Positions 1 through 5,121 of a DNA stretch of 5,121 bases are shown one piece after another. Under the pieces are notes generated by a model. It worked only from the letters and a program-made list of their open reading frames with translations. It had not been told where the DNA came from and made no database searches. The stretch is from IMG/VR virus record IMGVR_UViG_2698536505_000007, positions 1 through 5,121 of that record. One strand, 5' to 3'. The DNA is from a virus. Its lineage: Duplodnaviria > Heunggongvirae > Uroviricota > Caudoviricetes. The first letter of the stretch is position 1; the number at the start of each line of letters is the position of its first letter. Position numbers and translations under genes: made by a program.

Positions 1-2225
1 GGAGCACCACTGGAACCACCTGAAACAAATGTCATCGAATGGGTATGTGCACCGGCTGAAGCAGCCGTACCGCTAACACTATGGGTATGCGCCCCGGTGT
101 TATTCGTGGATTTAGTGCCGTAATCAAACGACGATGTGTTTTTCGTCCCCAAATCCGTACTGGATGCGCTGGCGCTGTGGGTGTGCGATTTAATGCCGTC
201 CTGTTCCTGAGATAATACGGCTCGACCACTGGCAGGTTTGCCCTTAATCGTCCAGCCACGCATATCAGGGATCACGCCTGACGGATAAGCGGCTGCAAGT
301 TTTGGGTAGGCAGATTTGTCAAAAGTCTGCCCCTGCATCAGGGCATAACCAGACGGAACGGTATCTGATGGCCACGGGATTGGTGCACCGACTGGATAAA
401 ACTCTGCAGGAGGATGAGCCGAGGTGTAAAGCTGCGCCCAACCACTTTCAAAACCATAACCGTCTCTTGAAGAACGGTAGAACAGACCACCATTTCTGTA
501 ATGCGCCTTCATCTGCAAGGTCCGGCAACTTCCGACTCCGGTATAGAAGTTAACCAGAATATAGCTGTCGCCAGAGCGGGTGACATTATAAGCGCCTGAT
601 TCGGCATTCCATGGAACGCCCCCATCCGCATCGGCATACGCATCCGTTGCTCTTCTGGCAAAAGCAGCCACATGCGCGGCGGTTAAAGTGATATCAGTAG
701 AACCATCAAATGGAACACCGGATATTTTTCTTGCAGTCTGAAGTTTTGTAGCAGTTGCAGCATTACCAGTGGTGTTCTGATTACCCGTAGTGTTTACACC
801 TGGAAGGTTAATATTTGCAGAACCGTCGAAAACAACTCCACCGATAGATCTTGCCGTCTGCAATTTCGTGGCTGTACTTGCATTACCATTCAATGAACCA
901 GTTAATCCACCTGTAACAGACAACGGACCTGAAACTGTTCCTCCGGTTGTTGGCAGTGCTCCAATATCTAACGGCGTCGGTTTCTGATGTGTGCTATACA
1001 TCGTATAAACAACACCATCGGTAACGCTGGAAGGCTTACTCGCTGAATATGTTGGCGATGTATAAATAGAAACTGTCGCATTTGCAGTACAATCCCAATG
1101 GATATTTACACGAGTCGCATAATTGCCAATCTCAACGTAAATATCATATGTATCGCCGGATGTGTTGATCCAGGCGAAATTCGTTAATCCGACGGCTGTA
1201 CGCTTCCACAAAGCCCCGGTAATTCCTTTGGGGTTTCCATTGCCTGCTCGTAGAACCAGTTCTGAAATGCCTGCCTGATGTGGGGAACCGACGTTGTAAC
1301 CAGCGCCACCAATCAATGCGATGTAAACGATGGAACTCGCTTGTGGCATGGTAACCGTAGCCAGTTTGAACCACCCAGCCCCGCCAGAGAAAGACATCGT
1401 TACTGAATTTAAAGTACCAATATCTTTCGGCGTTAATGTTATATCCGCAGTCAGTGCTTTTCCGTTAACTTTTCGGTTAGATGGCACCCTGCTATTCGCA
1501 TTGTCATTGGCTGCTTTAACTGCTTTTGGCGTTGCGGCCAGCGATTCACTGGTGCTATCAACAGCACTGCTAAGTTTCACAACACCTTTAGTTGTAAGGC
1601 TTGCGTCTTCCATCGCAACTGCACCGGCAATCTCTTCAGCACGATCAGCAGCAGCTTCCGCACGGGTCGCAGCGGATTCAGCAGCAGTTTTGCTCTGAGA
1701 TGCTGCCGTCGCACTGCCTGCCGCCTCTGTTGCTTTCGTGGATGCCGTCGTGGCGCTGCCCTTCGCTGCTGACGCCTGTCTGGTCGCCTCATCTTTTGAA
1801 GCAGACGCAGATGATGCCGATGACGCTGCCGAACTGGCGGACGATGCGGCTGCCGTGTTCTGTGCCACTGCGGACGCGTTACGCGCCACCTCTTCCACCA
1901 TCAGTTCAAAACGGCGCAGTGCCTCTGGCCGGACATCATCCTCCGTCATTGCACCGAGGAAATCATTCAGTGTGCCCGGCTTTGAGTCCTCATATACGGT
2001 GATAATCCCGGCGTGTGACGGCGGGAATCCCTCCACCAACAGACTGACGCTGTACTGACCATACTCGACGTCCATTGTGTAACGCCCGGCTTCATCCGGG
2101 TTTTCTGAGGCCACTGTGTTCACCACCACCGTGGTGCTGTTGCGCCTGGCCTTTAGCTGAATGGTGCAGTTTTGTATCGGCTTACCTGCGCCATCTTTCA
2201 GTACACCTGAAATCCGTACTGCCAT
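1..2225 (-). CDS. stf: Side tail fibre protein Stf (lambda stf / orf-401 + orf-314 homolog); N-terminal 741 codons, 3' end beyond the window edge
   Basis: Hand translation of the minus strand from ATG at 2225..2223 is open with no stop for 741 codons down to position 3 ([118 protein letters not shown]...). The first ~105 residues closely match my recollection of the lambda Stf N-terminus, and the distal part (...[65 protein letters not shown]...GAHTHS...) matches the lambda orf-314 portion. A G-rich Shine-Dalgarno (GGGGGG, plus-strand 2229..2234) lies just upstream of the ATG. Absent from the ORF track only because it lacks a stop inside the window. Confidence 0.9.
690..887 (-). repeat. Two tandem ~40-codon phage tail-fibre repeat units inside stf
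   Basis: Translated units [30 protein letters not shown] and [30 protein letters not shown] lie about 120 bp apart in the same frame and share the motif [15 protein letters not shown]. The underlying DNA is diverged, so this is an old duplication. Confidence 0.6.
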
Positions 2226-2234
2226 ATTCCCCCC

Positions 2235-2263
2235 ACAAAAAAGCCCGCCTGAACCGGCGGGCT
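2235..2263 (-). terminator. Rho-independent terminator downstream of lom
   Basis: Minus strand reads AGCCCGCC-GGTTCA-GGCGGGCT (a 7-8 bp GC stem with a 6-nt loop, plus-strand 2242..2263) followed immediately by TTTTTT (plus-strand A-run 2237..2242). It lies 27 bp after the lom stop and about 10 bp before the stf start codon. Confidence 0.55.
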
Positions 2264-2289: not shown

Positions 2290-2889
2290 TCAGAATTTAT
2301 AACCGACACCCACGATGAAACTGTTGGTACGCCAGTCACCGCTGCCGGAGCCTTCATAAGCGACGTCAACGGCCACGGATTCGGTCGGGTTAAACTGCAC
2401 GCCAGCTCCCCACGCCAGAGACGTGTTGCTGTGGCGACCGTCATCACTTCCGGTCAGCACATCGTGCGTTTTCCCCTTGTTGTCAGTTACGCGGATATAA
2501 TCCCCGGAGAAAGTCGACACACGGCTGTAAGCCATACCCGCCATCGCATACGCGCTGAACCATTCATTCACGCGCACAGACGGCCCCGCCATCACGCTGA
2601 ACCAGCGATTACGCACGGAATCCTCATGCCAGCGGGTATCGCTGTAATGCGTTTTTTGCTCATCTTCAGCGTTGGCATAACTGAATGACGTAATCAGCCC
2701 CAGCGTGTCCGTAAACTCATAACGGTATTTCACGTTAATCCCGTTCAGATTTTCGCTGCCGGGAGCGTTCGTACGGGCATGAAGATACCCTGCGCTCAGT
2801 GTGGCCTGCTGCTCAGACGCCCATGCAGGCGCACCGGATACGGCCAGACAGATGGCTGCGGACAAAATGGCTGCACAAACTTTACGCAT
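2290..2889 (-). CDS. lom: Lom outer membrane protein (Ail/Lom/PagC family beta-barrel), 199 aa
   Basis: Complete ORF in the track. The protein begins MRKVCAAILSAAICLAVSGAPAWA (signal peptide with an AWA-S cleavage site) and ends GVGYKF (C-terminal Phe typical of outer membrane barrels). Near identical over most of its length to my recollection of phage lambda Lom. Shine-Dalgarno GAGAGG lies 5 nt upstream of the ATG. Confidence 0.95.
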   Translation of the reverse strand: MRKVCAAILSAAICLAVSGAPAWASEQQATLSAGYLHARTNAPGSENLNGINVKYRYEFTDTLGLITSFSYANAEDEQKTHYSDTRWHEDSVRNRWFSVMAGPSVRVNEWFSAYAMAGMAYSRVSTFSGDYIRVTDNKGKTHDVLTGSDDGRHSNTSLAWGAGVQFNPTESVAVDVAYEGSGSGDWRTNSFIVGVGYKF

Positions 2890-2894
2890 AATTA

Positions 2895-2900
2895 CCTCTC
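2895..2900 (-). promoter_or_regulatory. Shine-Dalgarno sequence for lom
   Basis: Minus strand reads GAGAGG-TAATT-ATG; the spacing and sequence are canonical. Confidence 0.6.
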
Positions 2901-2910
2901 GCTTTTCTGC

Positions 2911-2937
2911 AATAAAAAAGGCGCCATTTCTGGCGCC
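2911..2937 (-). terminator. Rho-independent terminator immediately after J (tJ-like)
   Basis: Minus strand reads GGCGCC-AGAAAT-GGCGCC (6 bp GC stem, plus-strand 2920..2937) followed by TTTTTTATT (2919..2911). It starts 20 bp after the J stop codon (2957..2959) and ends about 20 bp before the lom ATG. Confidence 0.55.
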
Positions 2938-2956
2938 CGTATATGGGTTATAAAAT

Positions 2957-5019
2957 TCAGCTGATACTGATGCCTGCGGTGGCTTTCTTCATCACCACAA
3001 CCAGCAAATCGCTGATACTTGCTGTGGGATACCAGTCATTTACCAGCCATGCTGACACCGAAAACTCCAGCGTCATGTGGCCGTGACCAGCTGGCATATC
3101 AATAACACCACTGTAAATCAGCGTATTATCCAGCGCGGTACGGTTATAAATTTCAGCACCATTTTTCTTCACTATCAGGCGGCATGAGGAGTAAATATCA
3201 GTATGCTCTCTCTCATGTTTAGCACCGCTGAATGCCACCGCCGGAATAACAATCTGCCGGTCAAACGGCTGATCGTCATAAATCCTGACGGTAATGGTCC
3301 CTGATGGCCACCGCTCCGGTGCCCGGGAGTCCCGCGGGAAAGCCTTACCCACTGTTTTGACAATATCGCCTTCAATCTGGTTGGCTGACAGTTTCCCTTT
3401 AATCTGACAGTTCTCATTTATCGTAACGTTGTTGAGCGTCCCGGCGTTCGCATTCACACTGCCACTGATATCTGCATTTTTAGCGGTCAGCTTTCCGTCC
3501 GGTGTCATGGAAAATGCAGGAGGATTACCGCCGCTGGTAATGGTCGGAGCCGTCAGGCGTTTCAGGAACACGTCGTTCATGAATATCTGATCGCCCTGAC
3601 CAACAAACATCGGCTTTGTGTTGCCATTCGCAGGATTAATCATCGCAATCCGATCAGCAGCCAGAAGCACCTGACTCTGCATACCTGCTGGCGTATTCTC
3701 AATACCGGCTCCGATACCCGCAATATAAAGGCGTCCGTCCTTCATCTGCTGCAGTTTCACGGCCCACATGCTGTTCAGGTTATTATTTGTATCAACCTGA
3801 ACTTTCTGTATCTGCTGGATTGCCGCGCTCTGATTTTCCAGTTTTTTATTGACGGTCTGCGTGATTTCATTGCTGACATTCGTAATGGACGTCCTGATTT
3901 CAGCCAGGTCAGGCGCAAGCTGACCGTTATCAATCTGCGTCCACAGCTCCTGGGCCAGATGTGTTTTCCCGATTTCTCCTTTGAAAAAATCCAGGTAACC
4001 TTCCGCATCATCGCTCGCCCGACCGACAGCCTCCACGAATGCCGATTTGCCGACTGTGTTCACACTGCGAACGTAAAAATAATAATCATGGCCCGGCTTA
4101 ATATTGATACTGGCGGCTATCCAGTACAGCGCCGTACCAAGATAGCGGGCTGTGGTTTCAACCTGCCTGATATCCGCAATCCGCGTTTCCGAGAACCAGA
4201 ACTCAAACTGTACCGTCGGATCATAAACCGCAAGATGCGGCGTGGCAGTTATCTGAAAATAGCCCGGCGTCAGCTCAATCCGCGACGGCGCTGCCGGGGC
4301 GGCAATCCGGAACGATACCGACGTCGGATCGCCCTGCTGTCCCCACGCATTTACCGCCCGGACCGTCAGCATGTAACGCCCCAGCGCCAGCTGCCTGAAG
4401 CGGTATGTGGTTTCCGTCGTCCGGGCCGTGCTGACCAGCCGCTCACTGCCGTCATCCGCTGTTACGGTCAGACGGAGCAGGAAGCTCACACCCTTCACCA
4501 CCTTCGGCGTGTCCCAGCGCGCCAGCACCTGATATTCCCCGCTGTCTGCGGTGACTTCGGCGGTCAGGTGCTGCACCGCTGGCGGCGTGACACCATTCAC
4601 CGTGCCGCTCTGGTCACCGTCAAAGTGCGCCCCGTTATCCACGATGGCTTCTTTTTCCGGTACATGCTGCACGGCGGTGATGGCATACGTGCCGTCGTCG
4701 TTCTCACGGATACTCACGCAGCGGAACAGGCGCTGGCGCAGCGTCGGCAGCTTCAGCCCCCACACGCTGTATTCAGCAACACCGTCAGGAACACGGCTCA
4801 CTTTCACCTTCACGCCGTCGGTGACGGACTGAACCTCCACGCTGACCGGATTGCCACTTCCGTCAACCAGGCTTATCAGCGTGGTACCGGAGGATGGCAG
4901 CGTGATTTCACGGTCGAGCGTCAGCGTCCGGGTCTGGCTGTTTACCGCCAGCACGCGCCCGCCGATGCTGATACCCGCATAGTCATCATCACAGATTTCA
5001 ATGACATCGCCCGGCACAT
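2957..5019 (-). pseudogene. J: Host specificity protein J (tail tip / central tail fibre), C-terminal ~687 codons; 5' side interrupted by IS3
   Basis: The track ORF 2957..5032 (691 aa) matches the C-terminal ~60 percent of lambda J over long stretches ([17 protein letters not shown]..., ...[11 protein letters not shown]..., ...[24 protein letters not shown]...[20 protein letters not shown]...). The upstream 13 nt of that ORF (5020..5032), including its GTG start, lie inside the IS3 terminal inverted repeat, and an in-frame stop sits at 5069..5071 within IS3. Genuine J sequence therefore begins at 5019 with no native start codon in the window. Lambda J is about 1130 aa, so roughly 450 N-terminal codons are missing or displaced beyond the IS element. 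Confidence 0.8.
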
Positions 5020-5058
5020 TGATCCTACCCACGTAATATGGACACAGGCCTAAGCGAG
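5020..5058. repeat. IS3 terminal inverted repeat (IRR, ~39 bp, imperfect)
   Basis: TGATCCTACCCACGTAATATGGACACAGGCCTAAGCGAG read inward from the element tip, matching the recalled IS3 right inverted repeat. The left copy would lie about 1.2 kb beyond the window. Confidence 0.75.
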
Positions 5059-5121
5059 GTTCTTGTTTTCAAATTGTTCCGGACTGAGGCCGCCACACCA
5101 ACTGTGCCGCCGCCACCGATT
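5050..5121 (-). CDS. insF: IS3 transposase OrfB (InsF), last 23 codons plus stop; partial, N-terminus beyond the window
   Basis: Minus-strand translation from the window edge gives [23 protein letters not shown] followed by TAG (plus-strand 5050..5052). This is the recalled C-terminus of the IS3 OrfB transposase, and the stop lies inside the terminal inverted repeat, as is typical for IS3. Confidence 0.8.

Follow-up and report, generated by a model that had tools for sequence, protein, structure and literature searches.

An open, putatively relic stfR-type side tail fiber gene with a rare shaft deletion in a Rac-like prophage remnant of Escherichia coli

Gene content of the window

The window, by which we mean the whole 5,121-nucleotide stretch of caudoviral DNA analyzed here, carries the beginning of a side tail fiber gene (stf), an intact lom gene, and the 3' part of the tail-tip gene J, the last of which is cut by the right end of an IS3 element (Table 1); the order J-lom-stf is that of lambda. 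On the minus strand, translation from 2225 to 3 yields 741 codons without a stop, which begin with an ATG at 2225-2223 and run out of the window at its left edge. A random frame of this length would stay open with a probability of about (61/64)^741, or ~3e-16, and the open frame is therefore not due to chance. In the mechanical ORF list, the longest entry overlapping positions 1-2225 has 133 aa; the 741-codon frame is missing from this list because the lister skips ORFs that run past an end. Retranslation bears out the preliminary description of this DNA on two points, namely, that a large gene with no stop inside the window had been missed by the ORF track, and that it is open in one frame, unlike orf-401/orf-314 of lambda PaPa.

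Table 1. Features of the window and their positions in the 5,121-nucleotide stretch
Feature	Positions	Strand	Basis
stf, stfR-type side tail fiber gene, 5' 741 codons	1..2225	-	translation, Pfam, identity to WP_151326852.1
First part of T4-gp37-like collar and needle (predicted receptor-binding tip), aa 609-741	1..401	-	2XGF
Distal StfR-like module, aa 487-608	402..767	-	K-12 StfR, 8ju3, phi458
Middle module, aa 252-486	768..1472	-	pairwise comparisons
Phage_fiber_2 motif (..LAATPKAVK..), aa 209-249, end of proximal shaft	1479..1601	-	Pfam, 5yvq
Shortened Ala/Ser-rich heptad coiled-coil shaft, aa ~102-205	1611..1922	-	periodicity, composition
Deletion junction, single remaining copy of 11-bp direct repeat ACGGCAGCCGC	1845..1855	-	alignment with ET665
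StfN collar (tail-attachment) domain, aa 1-94	1944..2225	-	PDB 9e7m/9mgh, PF08400
Terminator-like hairpin and T-run between lom stop and stf ATG	2242..2263	-	sequence; same position in lambda
lom, Ail/Lom outer-membrane beta-barrel protein, 199 aa, intact	2290..2889	-	Pfam Ail_Lom, E 5.7e-125, full length; WP_001233121.1
J', 3' 686 codons of tail-tip gene J	2957..5019	-	lambda J, Pfam
IS3 right end (TGATCCTACCCACG... on the + strand) and last transposase codons; truncates J	5020..5121	-	alignment

Pfam searches with the stf product recover phage_tail_N (PF08400) over aa 1-132 (E 2.5e-70, with 235 bits where the cut-off is 26.6), Phage_fiber_2 at aa 209-249 (E 1.7e-18), and Collar at aa 613-660, along with Phage_fiber repeats. 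Three of the characters that mark the lambda Stf/StfR family are found: an N-terminal PF08400 collar domain, seen both in Pfam and in the solved StfN chains; a position 3' of J and lom and 5' of tfa, for which J' and lom are in the window and tfaR is in the matching genome described below; and a C-terminal gp37-like collar and needle with HxH motifs, seen by comparison with 2XGF in the complete 822-aa protein. Where the family has a long Ala-rich heptad shaft of unbroken register, this protein has a heptad shaft that is reduced in length and slips by one residue (see below). By homology and position, the 741-codon frame is a side tail fiber gene of the lambda Stf/StfR type, lying 3' of J and lom. 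The similarity to Stf-type tail fibers that the preliminary description proposed to seek was found with PF08400, the lambda StfN chains, and lambda orf-401.

The J' fragment corresponds to residues 474-1132 of lambda J (73% identity over 474-1131) and retains the Ig_J, Ig_J_second, Phage_Tail_Tip, and Ig_GpJ_C domains, with the N-terminal ~473 codons gone. Two alignments, one to an intact J and the other to an independent copy of IS3, place the J/IS3 boundary at 5019|5020. Matches of other IS3 copies reach 5005, but this extension reflects similarity of the flank alone (CATCGCCC.GC) and was rejected in favor of the above boundary. The listed 691-aa ORF at 2957-5032, with a GTG start, was likewise set aside as an artifact, its first codons lying in the IS3 end and homology to J beginning from 5019/5017. 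The + strand ORFs at 1330-1698, 1601-2002, 1738-2058, and 3959-5053 (364 aa) were regarded as by-products of the coding strand, lying opposite the well-supported stf and J; the lambda orf206b is a comparable antisense call.

The strong terminator-like hairpin between lom and stf is followed, before the stf ATG, by a G-rich Shine-Dalgarno-like stretch, GGGGGGAATATG, and lambda carries the same intergenic hairpin at the same place. Expression of stf appears doubtful from these signals; we infer that the gene would be reached by antiterminated late transcription only, no source of which is evident in the remnant.

Modular anatomy of the fiber protein

The protein can be followed as a series of modules from the tail-attachment end to the receptor-binding tip. 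Residues 1-94 match the lambda Stf N-terminal chains in the solved structures 9e7m/9mgh (E 3.2e-49), and aa 1-127 are 87% identical to lambda orf-401 (110/127), in agreement with the earlier statement that the N-terminal ~105 residues lie close to lambda. The shaft that follows holds 38 Ala and 18 Ser in 104 residues and ends at a region (aa 201-252) similar to the Mu tail fiber S in the solved structure 5yvq (E 1.8e-08); over aa 164-246, identity to lambda orf-401 is 67%. In pairwise comparison, the middle module (aa 252-486) has no counterpart in lambda Stf or K-12 StfR; it is 100% identical in the fiber of phage phi458, and internal stretches of T-even gp37 show 34-50% identity to it. The distal module begins at a repeated GNA(A/S)TATKLQTAR motif, which is the point of C-terminal module exchange in phi458, and similarity to K-12 StfR resumes at the same motif where phi458 diverges. 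Within this module, aa 520-607 match the Mu tail fiber S/S' in the solved structure 8ju3 (E 2.1e-28).

The C-terminal part, aa 609-822 of the complete protein, aligns end to end with the distal tip of T4 gp37 (domains D10-D11, the receptor-binding tip in the solved structure 2XGF; E 2.5e-87), with 133 of these 214 residues in the window, and aa 610-822 are 67% identical to lambda orf-314. The 822-aa protein has seven HxH motifs, at 681, 713, 727, 762, 776, 785, and 794 (three of the seven inside the window), which match the seven iron sites of the T4 gp37 needle, where seven iron atoms are held by histidines and the receptor contacts lie at residues 933-953 (PMC6957217). Unlike T4 gp37, which belongs to the long tail fiber of a myophage, the present protein belongs to a siphophage side fiber. 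The stretch aligned to the T4 receptor-contact residues (~aa 727-765) differs from T4, lambda, and K-12 StfR, and the receptor can therefore not be inferred from it. The window ends inside this divergent stretch, and the last 81 residues, half of the gp37-like tip included, lie beyond it. As its left edge falls at residue 741, partway through the receptor-binding tip, the window alone does not permit a judgment on whether the gene is intact.

Taken together, these comparisons show that the side tail fiber protein is a mosaic, and its relatives differ from it in distinct modules. Ur-lambda Stf (orf-401 and orf-314 joined, 774 aa; structures 9e7m/9mgh) likewise lies after J and lom with a tfa gene downstream, and it shares with the window allele the heptad Ala-rich shaft, the LAATPKAVK motif, and the gp37-like C-terminus. 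Compared with it, the window allele has an unrelated middle module and a shaft that is 148 residues shorter and does not keep the same heptad phase, and the element is a prophage remnant rather than a viable phage. K-12 StfR (b1372, NP_415890.2, 1120 aa), from the cryptic prophage Rac, is 92% identical to the present protein at aa 1-124, 77% at aa 144-251, and 86% at aa 487-822 (StfR 781-1120); against it, the window allele is without 253 shaft residues and has another middle module and other tip loops (aa ~727-765). The Stf of phi458 (OP434518.1, deposited as a complete phage genome with E. coli MC1061 as host) is an open frame of 953 aa, although its deposited annotation breaks this frame into pieces. 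The N-terminus is common to it and the window allele, and the flanks of the shaft and the middle module are identical or nearly identical in the two, before the phi458 C-terminus switches after the GNA(A/S)TATKLQTAR-type motif; the J-lom-stf region shows 93.8% DNA identity to the window. The shaft of phi458, in contrast to that of the window allele, is full-length (+253 aa), and the receptor-binding module at the C-terminus of the phi458 fiber is a different one.

The locus in a matching genome and its relation to Rac

The whole window matches E. coli B19374 (NZ_CP142915.1) with 2 mismatches in 5121 bp, the one within stf (window position 588) being synonymous. The sole further difference is a 2.7-kb ISCro1 between lom and J, flanked in B19374 by an 8-bp target duplication, TTTTCTGC, whose empty site lies at 2903-2910 of the window. 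As ISCro1 is present in B19374 only, the window and B19374 are different assemblies. In B19374, the stf frame runs 81 codons (244 bp) past the left edge of the window to a stop, giving a product of 822 aa. The 741 residues encoded in the window are identical to the start of the 822-aa WP_151326852.1, which RefSeq labels “prophage tail fiber N-terminal domain-containing protein.” Directly 3' of stf in B19374 are tfaR (Caudo_TAP, E 2.2e-42) and pinR, and then ydfK, ynaM, uspF, ompN, and nifJ; both the stop and the downstream tfa gene that the preliminary description expected on extension are therefore in place.

The order nifJ-ompN-uspF-ydfK-pinR-tfaR-stf-lom-J'...trkG in B19374 is that of the Rac prophage of K-12, in which stfR-tfaR-pinR-ynaE-ynaM...uspF-ompN lie on one side and trkG on the other. 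The position that marks the orthologue of Rac stfR, beside ompN-uspF and with pinR-tfaR and trkG as flanks, is occupied by stf in B19374; this context is read in B19374, the window itself holding stf-lom-J'-IS3 only. Since stf in B19374 occupies the site at which K-12 carries Rac, the gene is an allele of stfR from a decayed Rac-like lambdoid prophage of E. coli. Its closest relative is the Rac-prophage stfR and not lambda stf, with which the preliminary description had compared it. The side tail fiber gene, its family, and its locus were already known, and the exact protein is already in RefSeq.

Like K-12 Rac, with which it shares locus and gene order, the element is a defective prophage. 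It differs from K-12 Rac in that lom is intact in the window, whereas in K-12 it is disrupted by IS5, and in that J' is kept and cut by IS3. Beyond IS3, B19374 has a TAGT-family gene in truncated form, a fragment of ynaK, trkG, and lysis genes, and from the lysis genes to J' no terminase, head, or tail genes were found upstream of J'. This absence is read in B19374, while the IS3/J junction is seen directly in the window's own sequence. J' is labeled a pseudogene in B19374, and the J::IS3 junction occurs in B19374 alone among 5426 complete E. coli genomes. At the same site in strain ET665, an intact 1159-aa J is preceded by homologues of I, K, L, M, and H and accompanied by a 1075-aa stf allele.

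The adjacency of pinR and tfaR suggested an invertible tail-fiber segment. No convincing inverted crossover sites of the Pin/Gin/Cin-type switch were found in the stf-tfaR-pinR region of B19374, where the best candidates are 16-23 nt long and 74-88% complementary, and no alternative cassette (a second tfa or fiber C-terminus) was found in the region searched around these genes. An invertible segment was rejected on both counts.

An in-frame deletion in the coiled-coil shaft

The closest alleles, those of ET665 and many other strains, encode 1075 aa, with 253 extra residues between AQNTAAA and SSASSAASS. Compared with them, the window allele has an in-frame deletion of 759 bp (253 aa) in the Ala/Ser-rich coiled-coil shaft, which falls from ~357 to ~104 residues. 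The junction retains a single copy of ACGGCAGCCGC, two copies of which stand 759 bp apart in ET665. Among 5426 complete E. coli genomes, at least 1743 have the long form, with the additional 759 bp. It is also the form of K-12 StfR and phi458 and is therefore ancestral; the contiguous short junction is found among the 5426 genomes only in B19374. The exact 822-aa protein stands alone in its 90% cluster. It occurs under four NCBI accessions and on 9 contigs, one of them a complete 5.06-Mb chromosome, and the allele is thus real but confined to a small lineage. Of the earlier view of a mosaic fiber with a diverged middle, the mosaicism stands, whereas much of the apparent divergence of the middle is this deletion.

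Heptad periodicity is strong in the shaft: the spectrum peaks at 3.5 and 7.0 residues, and residue identity is autocorrelated at lags of 7, 14, 21, and beyond. A hendecad periodicity, which might be suspected from 253 = 11 x 23, was rejected in view of the clear heptad signal and the lack of a notable hendecad peak. As 253 = 36 x 7 + 1, the deletion does not remove a whole number of heptads, and the best a/d register shifts by one position at the junction. The distance from VARNAS to LAATPKAVK, used as anchors on either side, is 116 in the window allele, that is, 4 mod 7. Elsewhere, at the protein level, it is 152 (504211), 257 (WP7-S17), 264 (lambda), 299 (UCPROB-002), or 369 (ET665, phi458); these six other alleles, in five length classes, are all 5 mod 7, as are two more length classes, 250 and 271, from the DNA table. 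Hence, one heptad phase is common to seven other length classes, including that of lambda, and the window allele alone departs from it.

It appears from this that the length of the Stf shaft among E. coli prophages varies in whole heptads, which is a new, if minor, point. Three caveats apply to it: variants that keep the register could arise without selection, by unequal exchange between repeats of 21-bp periodicity; among the in-phase alleles, two (504211 and WP7-S17) are in genes themselves cut by insertion sequences; and the Ser/Ala stretch 3' of the junction is of low complexity and weak register, so that it might absorb a slip of one residue. Moving the register by -1 amounts to inserting six residues, which is one of the two insertion sizes reported to place the greatest strain on a trimeric coiled coil, the helices giving way locally to a beta-layer (PMC4786415).

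Discussion

The structure of Ur-lambda offers a frame for how a fiber of this type would be built. There, the collar at the gpV/gpM junction is made up of twelve StfN domains (residues 1-91), each followed by a linker, a proximal coiled coil (102-393), a hinge, and a gp37-like distal domain, and the Stf fibers bind OmpC and speed adsorption (PMC12617516). On this model, residues 1-94 of the present protein would be the collar domain, with twelve Stf chains (four trimers) docked around gpV/gpM. The Ala/Ser heptad coiled coil would then form the proximal shaft, followed by the T-even-gp37-like middle and the StfR-like distal module, and at the C-terminus a gp37-type collar and needle, the tip loops of which would make contact with a receptor in the outer membrane. 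The folding chaperone would be TfaR, whose gene lies just downstream. In the window allele, a deletion at the 11-bp microhomology has removed 253 shaft residues and moved the heptad register by one.

We consider it probable that the gene, an stfR-type gene of a Rac-like prophage remnant, is a frame-intact relic rather than a working fiber gene. The prophage cannot build a tail: IS3 has interrupted J, and B19374 retains neither head nor tail genes upstream. We infer that stf is neither expressed nor functional and that its sole plausible remaining role would be as recombination material for incoming lambdoid phages. On the other side, the 822 codons are open, the seven HxH motifs and the tfaR partner are kept, and the sequence proves no loss of function. 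K-12, too, has an open stfR in its defective Rac; such retention is common and could reflect selection.

The preliminary description had seen in the gene an intact, functional fiber of the Ur-lambda type. The open frame and the lambda-like N-terminus of that description hold, but a functional type is not supported, in view of the cut in J and the lack of morphogenesis genes in B19374. That stf belongs to an active lambdoid prophage, is expressed late, and serves on the prophage's own tails would accord with the open frame and conserved StfN, with the complete gp37-like tip and the tfaR gene in B19374, and with the related long alleles of ET665 and of phi458, a viable phage, each of which adjoins a complete tail module. 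It is nonetheless very unlikely: the J::IS3 junction inside the window contradicts it, B19374 is without head and tail genes between the lysis genes and J', and the shaft deletion is both unique and out of phase. Even less credible is the notion that the short allele is an artifact of assembly, in which the Ala/Ser repeats collapsed and the real gene encodes 1075 aa. Repeat collapse is a frequent assembly error, and the region is indeed repetitive, with a 21-bp-periodic tandem repeat and heptad repeats; however, the same 822-aa protein recurs under four NCBI accessions on 9 contigs, including the complete 5.06-Mb chromosome, a clean 11-bp direct repeat marks the junction, both flanks of which match ET665, and the window and B19374, which alone has ISCro1, are separate assemblies.

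A selected role outside a functional prophage deserves somewhat more weight, although we judge it unlikely. The stf-tfaR pair could be kept because it is useful, either as a reservoir of host range on which superinfecting lambdoid phages draw by homologous recombination or as a fiber supplied in trans to the virions of such phages via StfN. Recombination across stf-tfa takes place between lambda and both Rac and Qin (PMC3945230). The StfN domain is 87-92% identical to those of lambda and K-12 StfR, which makes both recombination and docking at the collar plausible; the module boundaries coincide with shared motifs; and open stfR genes persist in the defective Rac elements of many genomes. Yet a terminator stands directly upstream of stf, whose expression is putative, the restriction of the deletion allele to one small lineage speaks against a selected state, and the availability of a reservoir needs no selection on the host. 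Similarly doubtful, in our view, is the idea that the 822-aa allele is a natural short-shaft fiber that still trimerizes and works, the -1 (= +6) discontinuity having been absorbed; in such a working fiber, a beta-layer or the Ser/Ala stretch might be the absorber. The reading of the gene as a relic remains the one that we prefer.

The biological weight of these observations is small, given that the gene, its family, its locus, and the exact protein were known already. On the technical side, they offer the lesson that ORF tracks that drop edge-crossing ORFs can hide the largest gene of a window. If followed up, they could inform the design of chimeric lambda Stf for delivery vectors, in which fusion points and shaft length are chosen empirically. 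For the biology of the family, the small new point is that a rare deletion breaks the whole-heptad rule in an otherwise decaying Rac element; should the short-shaft fiber prove to work, Stf shafts would represent a natural series on the effects of fiber length and register on adsorption.

Gene content and annotation of the J-lom-stf region

Relative to the J protein of lambda, the product of the truncated J gene in the window shows greater than 90% identity across most of its length, apart from 28 residues inserted around fragment positions 361-388 (window about 3850-3940). In contrast, its last ~150 residues, which constitute the receptor-binding domain at the J C-terminus (window 2957-3400), are far more divergent. 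The sequence of this terminal domain thus suggests a receptor specificity unlike the LamB binding of lambda. The adjacent lom gene is flanked on both sides by terminator-like hairpins (see table) and thus has the layout of a "moron," a gene that forms a unit of its own. Of the two hairpins, the one preceding stf is conserved in lambda, with loop and stem changes relative to the window. The antisense ORFs opposite stf and J are probably by-products of the codon composition of the coding strand; the annotated lambda orf206b is an antisense call of the same kind. The side tail fibre of the Escherichia phage phi458 (OP434518.1; region 2498-5365 of the locus examined), as read from the DNA, is a single open frame of 953 aa starting with MAVKISG. 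In the deposited annotation it is fragmented, with one piece of 496 aa labelled "tail protein" and several short ORFs labelled "hypothetical."

Features of the window and of related loci
Feature	Location	Strand	Remarks
Terminator-like hairpin with T-run	window 2242-2263	minus	before stf
Terminator-like hairpin with T-run	window 2919-2938	minus	after J
Three antisense ORFs (122, 133, and 106 aa)	window 1330-2058	plus	opposite the Ala/Ser-coding shaft of stf and its flanks
Antisense ORF (364 aa)	window 3959-5053	plus	opposite J
TET-associated glycosyltransferase family gene	L001 (locus of E. coli B19374) 14966-15772		beyond the window; PF20691, E 8.9e-35
stf allele with another shaft length, cut by IS100	L005 (strain 504211) 3212-4084
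stf allele with another shaft length, cut by an IS66-family element	L007 (strain WP7-S17-ESBL-04) 2615-4399

Insertion sequences

Gene J is truncated at window 5019|5020 by the right end of an IS3 (5020-5121). The flank at window 4980-5019 resembles that of a separate IS3 copy in tssI of strain EF7-18-51 (CATCGCCCTGCCATA versus CATCGCCCGGCACAT), a likeness that could be due to chance or to target preference. In B19374, the glycosyltransferase family gene that borders IS3 on its far side appears, from its coordinates, to have been truncated by the element, because its annotated end runs ~19 bases into IS3, an overlap that depends on our placement of this 1258-bp element. The same strain carries the IS66-family element ISCro1 between lom and J, and window 2903-2910 is the corresponding unoccupied target site, TTTTCTGC. 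Since this site is empty, the window represents the state before the insertion of ISCro1 and derives from the lineage of B19374, but from another strain or assembly. The stf alleles of strains 504211 and WP7-S17-ESBL-04 are likewise both cut by insertion sequences; therefore, among the few alleles examined, insertion-sequence damage to the J-lom-stf region is recurrent.
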